Virus record (IMG/VR): IMGVR_UViG_3300047172_000052
Location: 13,854-77,853 of that record
Strand: one strand, 5' to 3'
Source of the DNA: a virus
Length of the DNA: 64,000 nt
The notes beneath the pieces are model-generated. The model was not told the DNA's origin and searched no databases. It was given only the letters and a program-made list of their open reading frames with translations. The position numbers were made by a program, and so were the translations under genes. Below are positions 7,562-35,337 of the stretch, piece by piece. Every line of letters starts with the position of its first letter. Position 1 is the first letter of the stretch.

Positions 7562-9275
7562 AGCAGTGATGAACACAGTCAAGGAGATCGCCCCAGTGTC
7601 CCTCGCTACCCTGACCCGCGCCAAAGCCGAACACCTCTGCAACTGCTACGGCGTCCGGCTCGTAGACTTCGAGGACGAGTTCCAGTTCGCACTGTCCTAC
7701 GCGGCGAAGGGGCACAACCCGGTGGAACTGTTCGACGGCTATGTCGCCGAGACGGTGCGGGTGAACCGGGCCGATGAGCAGCAGGCGATCCTGGAGGAGG
7801 TGTGGTGATGCAATTCATCGTAACCCAGGCTATTATTCCTGGCAAGTTCACTTGGCAGGTCTGGTTCGGCTCTGACCTGGAGGGTGAATCCGACGAGCCT
7901 CTGGCATCCATGGAAGACGCGGCGGCACAAGCCATCAGGTGCATCAAAACACATTGGAGGTTCGCATGAACGTGCCGCAAGCTGCCAACACCAACGTCCC
8001 AGCCGCCACGCAGGGCCAGGGCTACTACCCCGAGCTTGGCGAGCGCCACGACGGCACGGCCCTGTTCGAGCGCCACGTGGGCTACGGCGGCTATTGCCTG
8101 AAGTGGTCCGCCGATCGCCACCAGGAGGCGCTAGACACGTTCAAGGCTCTTCGCATCCGCCCGCGCTACATGGAGCCGTTCCGCTCCGACAAGACCGGCA
8201 TCACGAAATGGTCGGCGGGTGTAACCTGGGAAGCCGGTCGGAAGCTCGACAAGCTGTCCGTGACTGAACTGCTGCTGGACTGAAAGGGAAACTCAAATGC
8301 GCCGCACCGCGATCCCATACCGCGACGCCGTCAAGTGGATTCTCGACAACGACGACGTCACCTTCCTGGACGACGAATACGGGAGCCCTTCCGTTAGCGC
8401 ATGCCTCGTCGCTGATATCTACCAGCGCCCTGTCGAGGAGGTGGTTGCGGAAATGCGGCAGCGGCGAGGGAGCACGCGATGACCCAGGCCCTGACACCCC
8501 TCGAAGCCAAGGCCATCCGCCGGGCGGTAGGCGATGCCGCTGCCGGCGAGATGTATGGATTCTCGCACGACCTGTGTGGCGCCCTGAAGTCCGGGGAGGC
8601 AAAGCTCGTGGCTGCACCGGCACAGGCCGTCTGGGTGCCGTTCTCGCGCCAGGAATTGGACATCCTTCTGGATGCCGTCTCGAACGGCGCCGAGGGCGTC
8701 TTGCAGCCCTCCAGTGGCGTCAGCGCCGACCGTAAGAGGGCATTCCGTTCTGCCGCCAACCGGCTGATCGATGCTGGCGGCTTCACCATGCCACGGTTCT
8801 AGGAGGCGACATGACCAACGAGCTAACCGCCAAACAGCAGGAACGAATCGACCACGCCTGGGATCAGGTCCAAATACGTGCCGCCCAGGCCCTCTCGGAC
8901 GCGTCCTGTCACACGCTGGAGGACGCCCTGGTGATCATCAAGGAACTGGAGAAGAATGGCTGGACGATCCTCCAGAGCCCACTGCTGACCATCCTGCGAA
9001 CAAACACGCCGCGCACGGAGATACGCGCCGATCGAGAGCCGGCGCCGACTGTCACCGTGAGGGTCAAATGACCACCCGCACCGCCTACGTCATCATGTGC
9101 AACGACTACCCCGAGGCCGTCTGCATGGGCACCGAGGAGGAAGCGGATACCCTCGCAAAGCGCCTGAAGGACGAGGATGTCGCCAAGTTCCGCAAGCACC
9201 TCGGTCCCAAGGCCACGCCGCCCTTCAAGCACTGGGCAGCACGCGTCGTGCCGGTGTGGCCTCCGGCGTAAATTA

Positions 9276-11234: not shown

Positions 11235-11861
11235 GTTACAGAATACCACAAGATCGACACCGTCTATAAGCGCGATATGACAGCGCCGAAGAACCCGCTG
11301 ATCATCGGCGACTGGACCCACCCCGAGTTCGAGTTCCTGGCGAACAATGTATGGGTCTTCACCGAGAAGGTCGACGGCACCAACATCCGCGTCATCTTCG
11401 ACGAGACCGGCATCAGCTTCGGCGGCAGGACCGACGCAGCGCAGATTCAGACGTCGCTGCTGACGCGTCTACAGGACCGCTTCCAGAACGAGGAGGAGAC
11501 GTTCGCCGCGAAGTTTCCCCATGGTGCCGTGCTCTATGGTGAGGGTTACGGCGCCAAGATTCAGAAGGGCGGTGGAAACTACCGCCAGGATCAGGACTTC
11601 GTTCTGTTCGATGTCAAGATCGGCGACTGGTGGCTCCAGCGTTCCGATGTCGAAGACATCGGCAGGAGCCTCGGGCTGGATGTCGTTCCCATAACAGGCA
11701 CCGGCACGCTGCACCAAGCCATTCTCTACACCTGAGGAGGGTTCACGTCCCGGTGGGGAAACTTTACCGCCGAGGGGATCGTAGCGCGCCCCATGGTGGA
11801 ACTGAAGACGCGCGCCGGTCACCGGATCATCACGAAGATCAAACACCGGGACTTCAACTGA
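11235..11861 (+). pseudogene. Rnl2-family RNA ligase interrupted by an in-frame TGA
   Basis: EYHKIDT, TEKVDGTN (motif I), LYGE (III), FDV (IIIa); after TGA 11733-11735 the same frame gives GGFTSRWGNFTAEGIVARP...ITKIKHRDFN* (motifs IV and V). The codon after the SD reads GTT. Confidence 0.8.
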
Positions 11862-13709: not shown

Positions 13710-13906
13710 GGGTGTGGCTTGTTCAGCGGATTCTTGCAGATGCGACACACCTCATAGTATTCGCCGTAGCCAAACCCCAGGCACTCCCATCCGTCGCCCA
13801 GGCAGGCACCGCAGACCTTTGGCTGTTCGACCTGGGCAGGCGACGGCTTCGGCTCGAAGTCCTTCATGCGTTTGGCGATGTCTGCGAAGTCGAACACGAT
13901 GCTCAT
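13706..13906 (-). CDS. Small zinc-ribbon protein
   Basis: CGAC...CRIC; ATGA-coupled. Confidence 0.65.
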   Translation of the reverse strand: MSIVFDFADIAKRMKDFEPKPSPAQVEQPKVCGACLGDGWECLGFGYGEYYEVCRICKNPLNKPHP

Positions 13907-27684: not shown

Positions 27685-27701
27685 GTGTGCAGTTCTCCTT
27701 C

Positions 27702-28067
27702 TTACCAGTTCACAATCTTTTTCTGGGACATGACTTCGAAATATCGCCGTCCCGCATCGGCCTTTGCCTTCAGTGGTTCCAGTTCGGCGGCAGGAGCACC
27801 AAGGCGCTTCGCCCTCAAGTAGGCTTCTACGTCCTTGGACAACTGCTTGCTTGTCGCGCCATTTCGATAGATGCCTCCTCGGATAACCCGGAGAGCCTGC
27901 CCGTGCTGCCACGCGTCATAGACGCCGGCACCATACTGAGCTTCGAGTGCTGCCTGCGCTGTCTCCTGGGTGAGTGGGCTGCAGGGGTAGATATAGAGGA
28001 CGGCTTCATCCGCCAGTTCACCCGCCTTGATCAGCCAGTTCGAGGTGTTGGCAGACTCTGTGGCCAT
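27702..28067 (-). CDS. Hypothetical protein
   Basis: First gene after the divergent promoter; SD present. Confidence 0.65.
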   Translation of the reverse strand: MATESANTSNWLIKAGELADEAVLYIYPCSPLTQETAQAALEAQYGAGVYDAWQHGQALRVIRGGIYRNGATSKQLSKDVEAYLRAKRLGAPAAELEPLKAKADAGRRYFEVMSQKKIVNW

Positions 28068-28094
28068 TCCTCAGTTCTCCTTCTCCGTGGCATT

Positions 28095-28208
28095 CATTCG
28101 ATGCCCCCCTTATACCAGCACCGTGTCAGCCAGTCCAGAAATAAATGCGCCTGTGGCGTCGTTTTCCTGTTGACGGTCCCGTCAGTATATCTTACAAGGG
28201 GTCATCGA
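28095..28208. promoter_or_regulatory. Divergent promoters sharing one palindrome
   Basis: TGCGCCTGTGGCGTC 28146-28160; TTGACG 28170 toward rIIA; on the minus strand TGGACT-17-TATAAG; CATCGA downstream on both sides. Confidence 0.65.
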
Positions 28209-28232
28209 AACGGAGCGAGGAGGCAAGACGGT

Positions 28233-30446
28233 ATGCGTGACGTGGTCGGCTTGATGGATCGGGACGTCGAGGTCAGCGGGCTGGAGGAAGTCGGGACATT
28301 CACCATCCAGGCCAATGCCAAGGCCTTCAAAATCCTGATCGATGGGCTCTACTCCGACAAGATTCGCGCCATCATCCGTGAACTGTGGGCGAACGCCTTC
28401 GACAGTCATTGCATGGCTGGCATCGCCCATCGCCCGTTCTTCTCCCGTCTGCCGACCCGGTTCGACACCACATTCTCGGTGCGGGACTTCGGTGTGAGCC
28501 TGACGCACGAGCAGGTGATGAAGCTCTACACCACCGTCTTCGCCTCCACGAAGGAGGACACCAATGCGCAGGTCGGCAAGTTCGGCCTGGGATCGAAGAC
28601 CCCGTTCGCCTACACCGACAGCTTCAGCGTCGTCGCGATCCTCGATGGTGAGAAGCGCACCTACAACGCCTACATCGACAGCAAGGGCATCCCCCGCATC
28701 GCGCTGTTCTCCCGCGAGGAGACCGACGAGGAGCAGGGCCTGGAGATTTCCTTCTCGGTGAAGGATAGCGACATCAAAGCGTTCTCGCGTGCCGCGCAGC
28801 GCGTCGCCCTCGGCTTCGACGTGATCCCCGAGACGAACGGCGTGATCACGAAGACCGAGTTGACGACCGTGTTCGAGGGCAATGGATGGCGCGTCGTGAC
28901 GCCCGACTGGAACACCGGTCTGAATGGCGCCCTGGTGCGCCAGGGCTGCGTGCTCTATCCGGTCGATCGTCAGGCGCTGACCGCCGTGAAGCATTCGGCG
29001 GCTGTCGACAGCCTCGCCGGAGAGACTGTCATCCTCGATATGCCGATCGGCAGCGTCGATATCACGCCGTCGCGTGAGAGCCTGTCCTACGATCCGATCA
29101 CCGCAGGCAATCTGATCGCCAAGTTCGAGGAGATCGCGCAGGAGTTTCTCCGGCAGGCGGAAGACAAGATCAGCAATTCCAAGACGTGGCTGGAGGCCAT
29201 CCGCAACCGCGTCGACGTGCTGGGTGCGATCAGCAGCGAGAAGATGAAGGAATTCATCTCCCAGCGGTTGGCGTGGCGCGGTCGGACGATTCCCGTCCAT
29301 ATCAACATCACTTCGAAGCAGCTTCAGCTTCTGCGCCTCAAGGGTGTCAACCTCCACGACATCAAGAGCGAGCGTAAGCGCGGCGGCGGCTATAAATACT
29401 ATGCGATGGCATGCAGCAACTTCAGCAGCGTCCCGCACAAGCTGCCGACTTTCGTCTATGCGGAGGGGGATTCGCCGCGTCATCTCGGTCCTCGTCTGGC
29501 TGCGGCGAGGCATGCGCATGGGGACGTCTACTACATCCCGAACTTCAAGCTCGGTTCGTGGGGGCACAAGGCAATCCTGGCCATGCTGGGGCGCCCCGAC
29601 GACGAAGACGTCAAGTTCGTCGACATCGAGACGTTCCCCTACGTCAAGCCCGACTACAAGAAGACATTGGCGTCCTTGACGCAGTGGGATTCGAGCCGAG
29701 ACGCTTTCGCCCCCCCGCGTGTCGAGATCGAGCCAGACCAGGAGAACGTCTTCTACGTTCACACCTTCAAGGGCGATCCGCGCCACGGCGAGCGCTATGT
29801 GAGCCTGCGCATCTTGGCGCAGGTTTGGGACGGTCTGGCGGGCGCCAAGCTGCTGCCGTCTGATGCCGTTCTGGTCGGCATCCCTGCGTCCCGTAAGGAC
29901 ATCGCGAACAACATCCCCGAGTCCTGGGCGAGCTTCTTCGACTGGGTGTCGGAAGTGATCGCCGAGAAGTTCGATGCCGAAGTTGCCTCGAAGGCGATGG
30001 CAGCGAACACGATCAAGGGCGAGAGAGACCAGGGCAACCGGAAGATCATCACCGTGCTGGACAGCCTGCGCCCACACGCATCACTGCTGACGCATGGGGA
30101 TTCGTTTGCCCGAACTGTGCTCGAAGAAACGGCGCTGTATGGGGAGACTGTTCCGGACGGTCCATTCCAGCTTTCCCTCGTGGAACTGATCCGCGCGCTG
30201 TTCATGGCGACCGAATCCGACGCGATCCTTTCCAAGATCGACGAGAAGCCGCACACCGCTGGTTTCTATAAGCTCCTGAAGGCCTTCAACAAGGCCTACC
30301 CGATCGTCAGGGTCATCGCTATGGCCAGCGGTTACTACAACACGCCGAACCTCGCCCATGACGAAGTCCTTGAAGTCTTTGACTACCTAAACTTCAAGGA
30401 CGCCCAGGCGGCGCAAGCCCGGCAGGACGACGTCGCCTGGGGCTGA
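28233..30446 (+). CDS. rIIA: RIIA-like protein (GHKL/Hsp90-like ATPase N-terminus)
   Basis: LYSDKIRAIIREL.ANAFDSH, VRDFG, STK...GKFGLGSK.PFAY; followed by rIIB. Confidence 0.9.
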   Translation: MRDVVGLMDRDVEVSGLEEVGTFTIQANAKAFKILIDGLYSDKIRAIIRELWANAFDSHCMAGIAHRPFFSRLPTRFDTTFSVRDFGVSLTHEQVMKLYTTVFASTKEDTNAQVGKFGLGSKTPFAYTDSFSVVAILDGEKRTYNAYIDSKGIPRIALFSREETDEEQGLEISFSVKDSDIKAFSRAAQRVALGFDVIPETNGVITKTELTTVFEGNGWRVVTPDWNTGLNGALVRQGCVLYPVDRQALTAVKHSAAVDSLAGETVILDMPIGSVDITPSRESLSYDPITAGNLIAKFEEIAQEFLRQAEDKISNSKTWLEAIRNRVDVLGAISSEKMKEFISQRLAWRGRTIPVHINITSKQLQLLRLKGVNLHDIKSERKRGGGYKYYAMACSNFSSVPHKLPTFVYAEGDSPRHLGPRLAAARHAHGDVYYIPNFKLGSWGHKAILAMLGRPDDEDVKFVDIETFPYVKPDYKKTLASLTQWDSSRDAFAPPRVEIEPDQENVFYVHTFKGDPRHGERYVSLRILAQVWDGLAGAKLLPSDAVLVGIPASRKDIANNIPESWASFFDWVSEVIAEKFDAEVASKAMAANTIKGERDQGNRKIITVLDSLRPHASLLTHGDSFARTVLEETALYGETVPDGPFQLSLVELIRALFMATESDAILSKIDEKPHTAGFYKLLKAFNKAYPIVRVIAMASGYYNTPNLAHDEVLEVFDYLNFKDAQAAQARQDDVAWG

Positions 30447-30453
30447 AACTTTC

Positions 30454-30505
30454 TGTGCCTGGGGCTGTTTTTGCTGTTGACGTGCGTGACGCGCGGTGAC
30501 ATAGT
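30454..30505 (+). promoter_or_regulatory. Repeated promoter unit upstream of rIIB
   Basis: TGTGCCTGGGGCTGT 30454-30468; TTGACG 30477; 17 bp; CATAGT 30500. Confidence 0.75.
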
Positions 30506-30551
30506 GCTCCCAACGAAATGTGCTTCCAGATGTGAAAAGGAGATGGTGCGA

Positions 30552-31830
30552 ATGGTGAAGGTTCCCTACACGATCACACCGACCGCGATTTCGGTCCTGG
30601 TCAACAACCGGATGCGGGTGCTGAACAGCACCAACGTGAACTTCGGCGCGCTGCGGGATCACCTGCGGCTGGCGGACCATGACGTCGATCTGATCGCCGA
30701 CCTCGTCGACATCTCCACCTTCATCGCCCGTGCGACGTTCGGTCGCGTCCAGATCGGCGATGCCGGCGTCAAGTGGGACGGCACCAATGTCGGCAACGTC
30801 ATCGCCGATCGCCTGCTGGAACTGCTGCGCGGCGGCCATGACCTGGAGCCGCTGGCGCGGTTCCTTGAACGCCTGATGGAGAACCCGCTGCAGACGGCGA
30901 AGGACGAACTCTACCTGTGGCTGGAGAGCGGCAACGCCCCGATCACGCCGGACGGCTACTTCCTGGCGTTCAAGGCGGTTCGTCACGACTACAAGGACAA
31001 GTATTCCGGCACGTTCGACAATTCGGTCGGGCAGATCGTCTCCATGCCTCGCGAACAGGTCGACCCCGATCGGCAAAATGAGTGCTCGCGTGGGCTGCAC
31101 TTCTGCTCGCACGACTATCTGCAGAACTTCGCCAGCCAGGGCAATCCGATCATGATCGTCAAGATCGATCCGGCGGACGTCGTTGCGATCCTGAAGGACT
31201 ACAACAACCAGAAGGGACGCACGTGGCGCTACGAGGTGGTCGGCGAGGTCCCGCAGGACGAGACGGCGAGCTTTTTTCCAAGGGCGACCTGTGGTGCAGG
31301 TGTATTCGGCGCCGGTCGATGAAGAAGGTGTCGAGGCCGATGACGACGGCGACGACATCGTGGGGAGCGACGAGACGGAGGACGTCGATGGGAGTGGTCT
31401 GAAGATCGAGGACGTCAACGTCGGCGACAGCTTACTCTGCCTCCGCGATGAGGAAGACATGACTGAGGGCAACACCTACGTCGTGATCGACCTGAGCGAA
31501 GAATTCTCTGAGGTTATGGTTACCGATGATGCCGAGAACGAGTCCTGGTGCGACGTCTCCCTCTTCAAGAAGGTCGATCCTGTCGTCGGACATTTCGCCC
31601 CCGCCGAGAGCGTCGTCGAGCCGGCGCCGGAACCCGAGGATGATGTAGTCACCGAGGCGGCGCCCGGCACGCCGGAACTGATGTTCACCGCGAAGGGCGG
31701 CAGGTCCTACCTCGCCAGCGAGGTGCGAAACCTGCTCAGCGAGCATGGGCAGCGCGGCATGTCCCGCCTGACCGGCGTGCCCCGAACGACGATCCAGGAT
31801 TGGGTGAAGGCGATCAACGCCAACGCCTGA
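30552..31830 (+). CDS. rIIB: RIIB-like protein, split by a +1 frameshift near 31272-31277, with acidic linker and C-terminal HTH
   Basis: ITPDG.FLAFK.V..DY.D...MPR..VD.D...CSRGLH.C...P.DVV.I..DY...KGR...YEVVGE; removing one T from CTTTTTTCC joins it to ORF 31291-31830. Confidence 0.85.
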
Positions 31831-31840
31831 TCCAGCCAGG

Positions 31841-31951
31841 GAGAGGGAGCATCGACTGGTAGATGCGAACGATGTCGAGAGCGACGTGGGATCGATCGTC
31901 ACCCATTAGCACCGCTTCGTTGGGGAGGTTCGAATCCTCTTCCTCTCACCA
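31841..31951 (+). ncRNA. tRNA-like RNA 1 (111 nt, enlarged anticodon domain)
   Basis: GAGAGGG/TCCTCTC-A-CCA acceptor stem, CATC/GATG D-stem, GGAGG-TTCGAAT-CCTCT T-arm. Confidence 0.75.
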
Positions 31952-31965
31952 TCTTGCTAGTTTCT

Positions 31966-32063
31966 TCCGGTGCCACTTGCAATGGCCTTGATGACCGAAA
32001 GTCCGGCGCTGGACAAGTAGGACTGAGCCTGAACAGGGGGTGGAACTCCCCCGACCGGAGCCA
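31966..32063 (+). ncRNA. tRNA-like RNA 2 (98 nt, K-turn-like and loop-E-like motifs)
   Basis: TCCGGT/ACCGGA-G-CCA, GGGGG-TGGAACT-CCCCC T-arm, TGATGA...CTGA and GAA/AGTA motifs. Confidence 0.65.
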
Positions 32064-32084
32064 TTTTTGAGAGGAGAACTGTCC

Positions 32085-32468
32085 TTGCCCATCATCTTCC
32101 AGCACCGCGTCTACCGCTCCGACCTGCAGAACAATCCGGACGTCCTCTACCTGTTCGGCGACAACGATGAGCGCACGGGCTACGGAGGACAGGCTGGCGA
32201 GATGCGGGACGAGGAGAACGCGGTCGGCGTGCGGACGAAGTTCCGACCTGGAATGGAACGCCGAGACTTCTTCAACGATAGCTTCTACAGGGACGCGTGT
32301 GAGATGATCTACACCGACCTGGAACGGGCGCGTGAGCACCTGGAGAAGGGTGGCGTCCTGGTCATTCCTTCGGATGGACTCGGCACAGGTCTGTCCCGGC
32401 TTCCGGAACTGGCGCCGCGCATCAATGCGTATCTGGTCGAGGAACTGGAGAAGCTGAAGGAGTTGTAG
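32085..32468 (+). CDS. Conserved phage protein, macro-domain-like
   Basis: YLFGDN..R.G.GGQA..MR...NA.G.RTK...P.DGLGTGL motif. Confidence 0.6.
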   Translation: MPIIFQHRVYRSDLQNNPDVLYLFGDNDERTGYGGQAGEMRDEENAVGVRTKFRPGMERRDFFNDSFYRDACEMIYTDLERAREHLEKGGVLVIPSDGLGTGLSRLPELAPRINAYLVEELEKLKEL

Positions 32469-32471
32469 GAC

Positions 32472-33523
32472 GTGTGCATGCGCACCTGCCCCTGCTGCGG
32501 CTCGAATGACCACGTCGGCCCATTATACGGTCTCGGCGGTTCGGTGATCTATTGCAACCGCTGCCCCGCAGTCCTGGCGAACCGGCGTGACATCGAAGCC
32601 GCTCCGATCGACCTGACGGAGGCGCAGGCCGAAGACTGGATGTGGCGTGGCTCCGGCGTGCTGTCAGGCGCTGAAGCACTTGACCCTGCTGACGACGAAA
32701 TGTTCGGGCCAAACCGCTGGCCTGTTCCTGCTTCTTCCCCCTGAACCAAGGAGACTGTCCATGTCCGACGAAACCCACTGCTGTGACGCTGCCACACCCG
32801 ACGAAGCCCCCCGCCACAAGGCGACCCTCGCCGATCAGTGCCGCAAGCTGTTCGGGGAGGCCTTCCTCCTCAAGGAGGCGGCAATCAAGGCCGAGTCCGA
32901 TGCGCTAGGCGCCGATTGGACGTTCGGCGTCAACCAAGCGAACCTGGAGATCGAAAGCGTCCGTGGAGACCTGCTCAACGCAGCACGCAACATGGAATCC
33001 AGGCTCTACATCTGTGCCGGCTACTACGAGCCGGGTGAGCAGCAACCGTCCATCAGCCAGATCGCCTACGCCGTGACGATCGCCGAACTGCTGACGCTGG
33101 ACGGCTTCACGGCGGACATGGAGGTCAAGTCGACCGGAGGCACGTGCCGTCTGATCGGGGTCATGGTCGACTGGAACTGATCTAGCGACAGTCATGAAGA
33201 TAACCGGGGCTGAGTGGAAGGAATTCGAAAAGACCGGATGGCCTGAGGGCTACGTCTGGTATGAGGATTCCGTCTTCGAGGATGGAACAGACCTGTATCT
33301 AGCGAACGGCAACATCCGCTTCGCAGATGCTGAGACGTTCGTCCTTCCCGAGTCCTGGTGCATCGTCCCGGAGTCCTTAGTCTCGTCAGAGACTTTGTCG
33401 CTGCGATCGGTGGTCAAGAGGTGGCGCAAGGTTCGCGAATTCGTAATGCTCGTCGTGACGGTTACGCGTGGCCAGGAAGAAGCTGCGAAAAAGCTCATTG
33501 CTTCGGCTGGCTGGAAGTGCTGA
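32472..33523 (+). other. Three small hypothetical genes
   Basis: 32472-32744 (CPCCG..CNRC), 32761-33180, 33194-33523. Confidence 0.65.
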
Positions 33524-35337
33524 TCGACTACCAAGACGGCGTCTACATAGCGAACATCGCCTTCCAAGAAAGGGCGATGTTCGCCGATGCCCATTGGGTG
33601 TTCAGCGAGACGCGCAAGCGGTGGGTGACGTCCGACCCGGATAAGGCATTTGCCTTCAAGGCGTTCACCTCCCAGGCGGCGCATGACGCCCTGCTGGCGT
33701 GGCTTGCTTCGGAGGATGGCGCCGTCCAACTGTCTCGGGCCACTGACGCCGACATCGACGTCCCAGTCCCTCCAGGACTGGCTTACGACCCATTCCAGGT
33801 TGCCGGCATCGCCTACGCCCACACCAGGAAGGACACCCTGATCGCTGATCCTCCAGGCCTCGGCAAGACGATCCAGGCGATCGGCGTGAGCAACTACAAC
33901 CCCTGGATCAAACGCGTCCTGGTGGTTTGCCCTGGCGGTCTGAAGAAGAACTGGAGCCGCGAGTGGGAGAAGTGGGACGTCAAGGGGCTCACTGTCGGTA
34001 TGGCGCGGTCGGTGACGAAGAGTTCCGTCGCCAAGGACGAACAGGGGAACACCATCAAAGGCTTCAACGGCAAGTCCGTGCGGCGCTCCTGGACCGAACA
34101 TTTCTGGCCTGACACCCAGGTGGTGGTGGTCAGCTACGAAATGCTGCCTGACTTCGAGGCGGAAATCCGCAACATGACTTGGGACATGCTCGTCTGTGAC
34201 GAGGCGCAAAAATTGGTGAGTGAAGGCACCATCCGCACGCGACACGTCCTCGGCGCCGGGGCGCACACCAAGAAGATCAAGGTCGACGGGAAGATCACCA
34301 AGAAGCGCATCCCCACCGTGACGCCGATCCCAGCCAAGAAGCGCCTGTTCCTGACCGGCACGCCGATCATGTCGCGCCCGCTGGACGTCTGGACGCTGTG
34401 CAAGGCATGCGACCCCCACGGCCTGGGCAACAACTGGATGACGTTCGTCTACACCTACTGCGCGGCACACACGAACTTTGGGCGCCTGGACACCTCCGGC
34501 GCCTCTAACCTGGACAAGCTCCAGCGGGGACTGCGCAAGGCGTTCATGGTGCGACGGAACAAGGCGGACGTGCTGAAGGACCTGCCGCCGAAGCGCCGGC
34601 AACTGATCGAGCTTCCGGCGGACGGCCTCGCCAAGCTGGTCGACCGGGAAGTCTCCGCAATGGCGCGTGTGCGCGAAGCCCTGAGAGCCTACGAGGCGGC
34701 TGCACTCGGGATCGAGCTACCACCGCCCGAGGACTGGACCGGCCTGTGGGATGTCCTGGAGCGCCGTTTCGGGGGGCTTGCCCACCTGGACTACGCGGAG
34801 CGGGCGAAGCACCTCACGCCGGCTGAGCAGGTGGCGTTCGAGGAGATGTCGCAGGCCAGGAAGGACTTGGCGGCGGCGAAGATACCGATGGTGGTGGAGC
34901 ACCTGGAGAACCTGCTGTCGAGCGGGGAGAAGGTGATTTGCTTCTGCGTTCACACCGAGGTGGCGCAAGCACTCCGTGAGAAGTTCCCCGGCTGCGCATT
35001 CATCACCGGCAAGGTGGCGATGGACAAGCGCCAGGATGAAGTCGATCGCTTCCAGGACGATCCAACCTGCAACCTGCTGGTCGGCAATCTGACTGCTGCC
35101 GGTGTTGGCTTCACCATGACGGCTTCGTCTACGGTTGTATGCGCTGAACTTGACTGGGTTCCGTCTGTCATGGAACAGGCGGAAGACCGCGCATGGCGAC
35201 GCGGACAAAAGAACGCCGTCCTGGTTCAGCACCTAGTCGTTGAGGGGAGCCTAGATGCCCACCTCGTGGAGGTGCTTCTGGCGAAGCAAGAAATTGTTTC
35301 TGCGGCGCTTGACGTAAGCCATACTGACGTGCGATAG
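33517..35337 (+). CDS. SNF2/SMARCAL1-like helicase
   Basis: LIAD.PGLGKT, DEAQ, LTGTP, RRNK.DVL.DLP.K, AAGVG.T...QAEDRAWRRGQ. Confidence 0.92.
   Translation: MLIDYQDGVYIANIAFQERAMFADAHWVFSETRKRWVTSDPDKAFAFKAFTSQAAHDALLAWLASEDGAVQLSRATDADIDVPVPPGLAYDPFQVAGIAYAHTRKDTLIADPPGLGKTIQAIGVSNYNPWIKRVLVVCPGGLKKNWSREWEKWDVKGLTVGMARSVTKSSVAKDEQGNTIKGFNGKSVRRSWTEHFWPDTQVVVVSYEMLPDFEAEIRNMTWDMLVCDEAQKLVSEGTIRTRHVLGAGAHTKKIKVDGKITKKRIPTVTPIPAKKRLFLTGTPIMSRPLDVWTLCKACDPHGLGNNWMTFVYTYCAAHTNFGRLDTSGASNLDKLQRGLRKAFMVRRNKADVLKDLPPKRRQLIELPADGLAKLVDREVSAMARVREALRAYEAAALGIELPPPEDWTGLWDVLERRFGGLAHLDYAERAKHLTPAEQVAFEEMSQARKDLAAAKIPMVVEHLENLLSSGEKVICFCVHTEVAQALREKFPGCAFITGKVAMDKRQDEVDRFQDDPTCNLLVGNLTAAGVGFTMTASSTVVCAELDWVPSVMEQAEDRAWRRGQKNAVLVQHLVVEGSLDAHLVEVLLAKQEIVSAALDVSHTDVR

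Follow-up and report, generated by a model that had tools for sequence, protein, structure and literature searches.

Two tandem tRNA-shaped, CCA-ended units between rIIB and a DUF7831 gene of a high-GC phage: a possible non-decoding tRNA mimic with a remodelled lower half

The stable tRNA-like RNAs of the T-even phages are known in T4 as species 1 and 2 (rnaC and rnaD). The T4 species 1 and 2 RNAs are released from multimeric precursors by the host tRNA-processing enzymes. To our knowledge, phage RNAs that are shaped like tRNAs and do not decode have been known since T4, and none of them has an assigned function. YrlA RNA, which is encoded beside Ro60, is cut by RNase P and receives a CCA end (Chen et al. 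2014, PMC4201824; Rfam RF02553). The plant mitochondrial t-elements (Forner et al. 2007, PMC1920247) are intergenic tRNA-like folds that recruit RNase P and RNase Z and thereby shape mRNA ends. Finally, Mukai et al. (2017, PMC5389517) describe allo-tRNAs with 8/4 and 9/3 acceptor/T branches in bacteria and phages, which have a normal anticodon arm and decode. Here we analyse a phage locus at which two tRNA-shaped units, RNA1 and RNA2, lie in tandem downstream of rIIB.

The locus belongs to a 77.8-kb IMG/VR virus record (IMGVR_UViG_3300047172_000052), a high-GC contig with a completeness of about 46%, of which positions 13,854 to 77,853 were analysed as a single stretch of 64,000 nucleotides, hereafter the window. 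All coordinates refer to the window and all its features lie on the + strand, unless another sequence is named. The window sequence was present in moss metagenome runs, and no RNA run figured among the runs listed as carrying it; the phage host is probably an alphaproteobacterium, and Caulobacter is a plausible relative of that host. The rIIA gene (27687-30446, PHROG match) is followed by an rIIB homologue that occupies two overlapping frames (30471-31322 and 31291-31830; PHROG RIIB, E 2e-66). Compared with the rIIB-like protein of Microcystis phage Mwe-JY26, its N part showed 57% identity and its C end 65% identity over 40 aa. Other rIIB homologues are single proteins of 350-470 aa, as opposed to the two overlapping frames of the window. 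Because the contig of a second sample was identical across 31300-31350, which confirms part of the frame overlap, a simple sequencing error looks unlikely as the cause of the split. Downstream of rIIB, a gap of 245 nt contains RNA1 and RNA2, which are encoded in the orientation of both flanking genes. The downstream neighbour is a DUF7831 gene (32076-32468; Pfam PF25176, E 1.6e-41) whose TTG start is preceded by a run of five T and the ribosome-binding site (RBS) GAGAGGAG (32064-32075, same in the close relative described below), and an SNF2 helicase gene lies further on (33358-35337, profile match). Neither a solved structural relative nor a PADLOC match was found for the DUF7831 protein. Because relatives carry DUF7831 without the RNAs, this gene and the RNAs appear to have no specific link.

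A sequence scan detected one promoter-like site ahead of rIIB (TTGACG-17-CATAGT, 30477-30505). From there to 32067 it detected no second such site, and it placed no terminator-like site within the interval 30300-32600. Since this is the sole upstream promoter-like site and no terminator-like site was found in that interval, the gap is probably co-transcribed with rIIB. A rIIB-RNA1-RNA2-DUF7831 transcript that starts at the 30477-30505 site is likely, and it would imply read-through into DUF7831.

RNA2 (31966-32063) reads as a tRNA-shaped unit of 98 nt, the second of the two tandem CCA-ended units, and each sequence word that the preliminary description had quoted for it was found in place on the + strand. 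Its acceptor stem comprises 6 bp, TCCGGT/ACCGGA (31966-31971 with 32054-32059), next to a bulged G (32053), and is followed by a discriminator G (G32060) and an encoded CCA (G-CCA, 32060-32063). The T-arm (32036-32052) consists of a 5-bp G-C stem (GGGGG 32036-40, CCCCC 32048-52; pair probability 0.93) and the loop TGGAACT, which has U(1) and A(5), as a T-loop does, and is devoid of the TTC of tRNAs. At the D-arm position, a 4-bp hairpin, GCCA/TGGC (31972-31986; GCCA 31972-75, TGGC 31983-86), directly abuts the acceptor stem, with a pair probability of about 0.27. The loop of this hairpin has 7 nt, CTTGCAA, of which the last six form the palindrome TTGCAA. The anticodon-arm position is occupied by an irregular arm of 43 nt (31987-32029), which reads TGATGA-CC-GAA-A-GTCCG-GCGC-TGGAC-A-AGTA-GG-A-CTGA over 31989-32026. 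From its base upward, the arm may form tandem G.A/A.G pairs (31990-91 with 32025-26), U.U, G-C, A.A and CC/GG. In its upper part GAA (31997-99) lies opposite AGUA (32016-19), and an A.A and a GUCCG/UGGAC stem lead to the cap, a GCGC tetraloop that, like the loop palindrome, was noticed after the fact. RNA1 ends with its CCA at 31951, so that the two units are separated by a pyrimidine-rich spacer of 14 nt (31952-31965, same in the relative), as had been claimed. The G.U pairs of RNA1 and RNA2 are compatible with the + strand only.

As had been anticipated, standard tRNA finders missed RNA2. ARAGORN called 0 genes on the RNA2 region and returned noise only under relaxed settings, and Rfam gave no match for RNA2 at the gathering score. 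A permissive Rfam search (E <= 10) of a 501-nt stretch placed nothing tRNA-like on RNA2; the archaeal C/D RNA sR15, aligned over the T-arm and the RBS with E 5.7, was noise. Compared with the canonical 7+5 acceptor/T stack, RNA2 has 6+5 bp with the bulged G32053. It has no linker after the acceptor stem (U8) and no GG loop (G18G19), and its T-loop is TGGAACT and not TTCRA. An anticodon stem of 5 bp with a 7-nt loop was absent from RNA2, whose irregular arm at that position ends in a 4-nt loop, and its only 7-nt loop has D-arm placement and caps a 4-bp stem. RNA2 is predicted to be unable to read codons. The earlier interpretation of CTTGCAA as an Ala(UGC) anticodon loop is weak, as it relies on loop length (7 nt), position 2 being U and position 6 a purine. 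We also ran a loose tRNA-frame scan, defined by a 5-bp stem, a 7-nt loop with T1/A5, a 6-7-bp acceptor stem and NCCA. On both strands of the window it recovered RNA1, RNA2 and two other places, and in 506 kb of related loci it recovered almost only ARAGORN-called tRNAs, plus about three others. Because the loose scan otherwise hits nearly only genuine tRNAs, two tRNA-like frames 14 nt apart within a 245-nt gap are not due to chance.

Folding energy gave no support to RNA2 (MFE -32.0; z 0.03 versus shuffles). The acceptor pairs reached an ensemble probability of 0.33-0.38, low because the RNA2 5′ strand and the arm hairpin can form a competing 9-bp helix of equal energy. Only the T hairpin was robust in the ensemble (0.93). 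The arm had been described as carrying box C/D (K-turn) and loop-E motifs, and the words do lie in register across it. UGAUGA stands opposite CUGA, with G31990 A31991 facing G32025 A32026, followed by U.U and G-C as in box C/D, an agreement at the level of sequence only. The bulged-G register is present as well, AGUA/GAA being flanked by CC/GG and, past the A.A, by GUCCG/UGGAC; the fold itself is a prediction from this register. These motif words are short and were selected after the fact. The arm is thus described here as compatible with a K-turn and a bulged-G fold. Where the earlier picture gave way is at the K-turn stem. The sole candidate for a canonical stem pairs GGC 31984-86 with GCC 32027-29, and GGC 31984-86 lies in the 3′ strand of the GCCA/TGGC hairpin. 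Because the same bases are used, K-turn stem and hairpin are mutually exclusive and cannot coexist as had been drawn. Nearest-neighbour energies, from a model that does not score K-turns, were -28.7 kcal/mol for the hairpin version and -27.2 kcal/mol for the K-turn-stem version, 1.5 apart; the same blindness to K-turns applies to the ensemble probability of 0.004 for the GGC/GCC stem. The further suggestion of an rRNA mimic or ribotoxin decoy found no support. The arm is capped by GCGC and not GAGA, this loop is five pairs away from the bulged-G motif, and AGUA is on the 3′ strand, at odds with a sarcin-ricin mimic. With respect to box C/D sRNAs, the arm has a single C/D-like pair and no Rfam C/D match, and a Pfam model search found no L7Ae-family gene on the contig, which is about 46% complete.

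To assess conservation, contigs from two runs of one independent study were compared over 31300-32500. The longer contig (802 nt, depth 5) spans 31624-32429 and is about 90% identical, with 60 substitutions and 8 indel positions; the shorter one (151 nt) spans 31848-31999. Among the 40 differences listed, single-run ones less than about 112 nt from a contig end were absent, from which we infer that the listing is complete for 31735-32317. Within this span, RNA2 had substitutions at 0 of its 98 nt, compared with 36 of 360 sites in the flanks (about 10%), and no position changed in the block 31903-32079 (0/177 nt). Versus the flanks, Fisher p was 1e-4 for RNA2 and 3e-7 for this block. The spacer, the trailer and the RBS were unchanged, conserved as fully as RNA2. 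Outside the RNA block, the nearest difference on the left is at position 31840, immediately preceding the predicted start of RNA1, and the nearest on the right, at 32080, falls in codon 2 of DUF7831. One 802-nt and one 151-nt contig thus support a strong nucleotide-level constraint on RNA2. Since silent changes are absent, the pattern argues for a constraint on RNA rather than on protein at the small ORFs that overlap RNA2. On the other hand, because spacer and trailer are equally conserved, a recent transfer of the whole cassette between both lineages could mimic selection. The sole relative being identical, RNA2 showed no covariation. Of the tRNA-shaped, CCA-ended unit put forward at the outset, the frame is present and strongly conserved, and its K-turn stem would compete with the hairpin.

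RNA1 (31841-31951) was recognised by sequence reading as a tRNA-shaped unit with an encoded ACCA. Its acceptor/T branch is 7/5 (or 8/4), its D-arm contains GG, its T-loop reads TTCGAAT, and its folding energy has a z of -2.8. In the permissive Rfam search it matched tRNA-Sec below threshold (20.8 bits, E 0.13), with the acceptor and the T-arm alone aligned. RNA1 was ruled out as a tRNA-Sec or an allo-tRNA, as it has no anticodon loop; a roughly 50-nt irregular arm takes the anticodon-arm position. When the tRNA stems were enforced, the RNA1 centre folded as a long irregular arm capped by UGGG/CCCA and an 11-nt loop (TGGG/CCCA, 31887-31905). This apical hairpin is the sole variable patch in the RNA block. 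Over the 239 nt of that block the relative differs only by T31892>G, C31893>T, G31898>A and the loss of one C at 31902, that is, by three substitutions and one deletion, all within 31892-31902 of RNA1. Through C31893>T and G31898>A combined, the loop palindrome, CGATCG at 31893-98, is exchanged for TGATCA in the same place, and T31892>G adds one G.U per side, which makes the palindrome extendable to 8 bp with G.U ends. Such a palindrome-keeping double change fits loop-loop self-pairing or a short intramolecular stem, and it hints that the variable loop may be a loop-loop dimerisation or specificity loop. Because the double substitution preserves the palindrome, it suggests that the remodelled loops may be functional pairing surfaces. 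The RNA1 loop is also complementary over 6 bp to the UGAUGA of RNA2, a match that is expected by chance and was discarded. A 22-mer from the RNA1 3′ half had no exact match in IMG/VR or GTDB genomes, which argues against RNA1 being an attP core or a piece of host tRNA acquired recently.

The rIIB loci compared were 80 from viruses and 80 from metagenomes, the metagenomic rIIB being at most 51% identical among the matches listed. Searches with both RNAs by blastn and nhmmer yielded zero homologues in these 160 loci, and a search of INPHARED phages in distant mode matched the flanking genes alone and not the RNAs. An exact search of IMG/VR with a 17-mer of the T-arm gave five matches, all unrelated hairpins, and a specific pattern of the arm identified no RNA2 homologue in IMG/VR or in 185,579 GTDB genomes. 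A single-sequence covariance model of RNA2 found no accepted homologue in 163 loci and five related virus records. One of its hits (locus L035, 2076-2170) was rejected, as same-position conservation across many rIIB loci was taken to indicate coding sequence. The motif words of the RNA2 arm were likewise not found at the same site of related phages, a result that counts in part against the preliminary description, but were kept unchanged in the one close relative. The gap comparison covers loci at 51-67% rIIB identity; the nearest homologues reach 77% (P0002, also P0003-P0005). In the closest comparable loci, the gap is occupied by a terminator hairpin together with small genes that vary, and contains neither RNA1 nor RNA2. 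The rIIB-DUF7831 gap is a variable cargo slot in related phages. Two loci have in it an ORF that resembles, by eye, a peptide deformylase with an HEVDH-type motif (L023 4655-5108, L024 4662-5119). In Mwe-JY26 the gap (L001 3130-3290) consists of four direct repeats of ~35 nt, each a GC-rich hairpin of the GAGACC..GGTCTC type, with no tRNA-like unit. In relatives that are more distant, a genuine tRNA gene often follows rIIB closely, with Gln, Arg or CUA-anticodon identity, which makes a tRNA origin of the RNAs at this site plausible. The CUA-anticodon tRNAs (L071 4480-4555; L087 and L089 3765-3839; ARAGORN tRNA-Pyl, amber-suppressor type) may mark TAG recoding in these three phages.

A second tandem pair of tRNA-derived units was found on the same contig, outside the window (contig positions 8070-8140 and 8145-8214, G000; 471-541 and 546-615 in L297). 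These units matched the Rfam tRNA model with 37.3 and 34 bits, and ARAGORN called none at 8070-8214. In one of them the anticodon arm is reduced to a short closed hairpin, and the other has a 4-bp stem with the loop CUACCAA and an 8-nt T-loop. Neither has a clean encoded CCA, and both are flanked by further apparently structured RNA. The phage thus seems, from these sequences, to keep a set of at least four remodelled tRNAs, and no canonical tRNA was found on the available 77.8 kb. Because at least four remodelled tRNAs would be kept next to zero canonical ones, this argues against such elements being mere decayed tRNA genes. As to RNA-related proteins, PTH2, RtcB, Ro60 (TROVE) and a CCA-adding enzyme were not found on the contig (about 46% complete). 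An Rnl-type RNA ligase gene (PF09414, 11148-11870) has an in-frame TGA at 11733-11735, beyond which the homology continues, with the EGIV and KIK motifs located 3′ of the TGA. This gene is either broken or read through, or it carries an assembly error. A suppressor role for this TGA was dropped because none of the four mimics has a UCA anticodon loop, and the contig showed no RNA with a UCA anticodon.

The reading that we favour, at about an even chance of being right, is that RNA2 mimics a tRNA without decoding, is processed and stable, and binds a partner through its remodelled lower half. RNA1 and RNA2 would emerge from one dimeric precursor as two small tRNA-shaped RNAs that do not decode, and the pair is presumably transcribed together with rIIB. 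Host RNase P would cut the RNA2 5′ end at 31965/31966, and an endonuclease and an exonuclease would remove the U-rich trailer as far as the encoded CCA. Recognition by RNase P and the CCA enzyme is not assured, because of the 6+5 stack with a bulged G and the T-loop without TTC. The tRNA top half (acceptor stem, T-arm and CCA) would act as a processing and stability handle, and the bottom half would have been replaced by a short hairpin with a self-complementary loop and an irregular arm rich in purines; the internal loops of this arm are consistent with a bulged-G motif (AGUA/GAA) and possibly with a K-turn. This remodelled half would be the working part, and its most likely partner is a protein, of the host or the phage, or else another RNA. 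A bolder proposal, which we hold to be very unlikely, makes RNA2 an effector in which the tRNA handle presents the K-turn/bulged-G arm to capture a host protein or a defence nuclease, while the palindromes of RNA1 and RNA2 self-associate. Candidate captives would be an L7Ae-family protein, a ribosomal protein, a translation factor or a defence nuclease, and the self-association loops would be TTGCAA in RNA2 and CGATCG or TGATCA in RNA1.

Several other explanations deserve to be weighed against the tRNA-mimic reading. The folds might exist for the sake of being cut, acting in cis to leave a protected rIIB mRNA 3′ end and a defined DUF7831 5′ end near the RBS, with the RNAs as by-products. In favour of such a role, the units sit between two genes of one strand with neither promoter nor terminator intervening, spacer, U-run and RBS are conserved equally with the folds, and the plant mitochondrial t-elements act in this way (PMC1920247). 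However, an acceptor/T minihelix would suffice for cutting, which leaves the tandem units and their elaborate, perfectly conserved arms unexplained. Cutting does not account for the palindrome-preserving change of RNA1 either, and relatives express the rIIB-DUF7831 pair without such an element, so that we consider this explanation unlikely. It is less likely again that the units are a decaying tRNA gene or fragment, devoid of function and identical in both phages because a mobile cassette recently recombined into a variable slot. A cargo slot with different small genes in each relative, real tRNAs at the same site in other phages, and the lack of both a thermodynamic signal and a wider family would all suit decay. 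Against it, there are 0 changes in 177 nt next to genes with 6-12% divergence, the conserved block has its edges at the RNA1 5′ end and the DUF7831 start codon, the four changes are clustered with the palindrome kept, and the RNA1 3′ half has no exact bacterial or viral match.

RNA2 might also not be tRNA-like at all and be a 5′ leader of DUF7831, an attenuator or a translational control element, in which the GGGGG/CCCCC hairpin is real and the acceptor pairing coincidental. The greater robustness of the T hairpin (0.93 versus 0.38) speaks for a leader, as does a CUCC in its 3′ strand that could pair with the GGAG of the RBS, with the T5 run 11 nt later. Yet no terminator-like site passed the scan and the DUF7831 genes of relatives have no such leader. 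Moreover, an encoded NCCA right after a 6-bp stem, 14 nt behind a CCA-ended unit, would be unlikely by chance, and a leader function strikes us as highly improbable. Least probable of all is the version of the preliminary description, a tRNA-processed scaffold with a true K-turn and a sarcin-ricin-like loop that serves as a ribotoxin decoy or an L7Ae/YbxF sponge. The exact register of the C-box and D-box words and of AGUA/GAA across the arm does favour it. The combined pattern is also rare: a degenerate C-box/loop-E pattern had at least 118 matches in IMG/VR, and among the matches listed three had the pairings and none was tRNA-framed. In addition, the L7Ae Pfam model matches Caulobacter vibrioides, used as a control genome, a match reported without its standing at the cut-off. 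These points are offset by the clash of the canonical stem with the GCCA/TGGC hairpin, by a topology unlike that of the sarcin-ricin loop (GCGC instead of GAGA, AGUA on the 3′ strand), by a contig without an L7Ae gene and by the box C/D match of Rfam being noise. We know of no ribotoxin-type defence that is countered by such an RNA decoy.

Among known systems, RNA2 resembles the T4 species 1 and 2 RNAs in being phage-encoded, located with or near tRNA-type genes, non-decoding and without an assigned function, and by analogy its processing may follow the same route. It differs from them in that no canonical tRNA cluster surrounds it, its CCA is encoded and the phage is high in GC; the two are likened by description only. 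With YrlA, RNA2 shares the design of a non-coding RNA that joins a tRNA-like module to a protein-binding module, the latter putative in RNA2. The ends of YrlA form the Ro60-binding stem and its tRNA-like part is internal, whereas the ends of RNA2 form the acceptor stem; moreover, RNA2 has no Rfam match to YrlA or Y RNA, and no TROVE gene is found on the contig. The tRNA-like domain of tmRNA offers a parallel in architecture, since there too the acceptor stem, the T-arm and CCA are kept, the D-arm is reduced and a long irregular helix replaces the anticodon arm. Unlike tmRNA, RNA2 has no mRNA-like part, no pseudoknots and no G3.U70, and ARAGORN detected no tmRNA.

The t-elements are minimal and organellar, in contrast to RNA2 with its elaborate conserved extra arms and encoded CCA. 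RNA1 can be drawn as 8/4 like the allo-tRNAs, but both RNA1 and RNA2 are without an anticodon arm. With box C/D K-turns and bulged-G motifs, RNA2 shares UGAUGA/CUGA and GAA/AGUA in the required register, as far as sequence can tell. It differs from box C/D RNAs in having no second C′/D′ pair, no guide and a C-stem that competes with a hairpin, and the likeness is therefore to motifs, not to families. RNA2 is compact and constrained at the nucleotide level, and carries putative protein-binding motif words on a tRNA handle, which leads directly to concrete point mutants and binding assays. If it is true that the arm binds a host factor, RNA2 would be an example of virus-evolved, tRNA-scaffolded aptamers.
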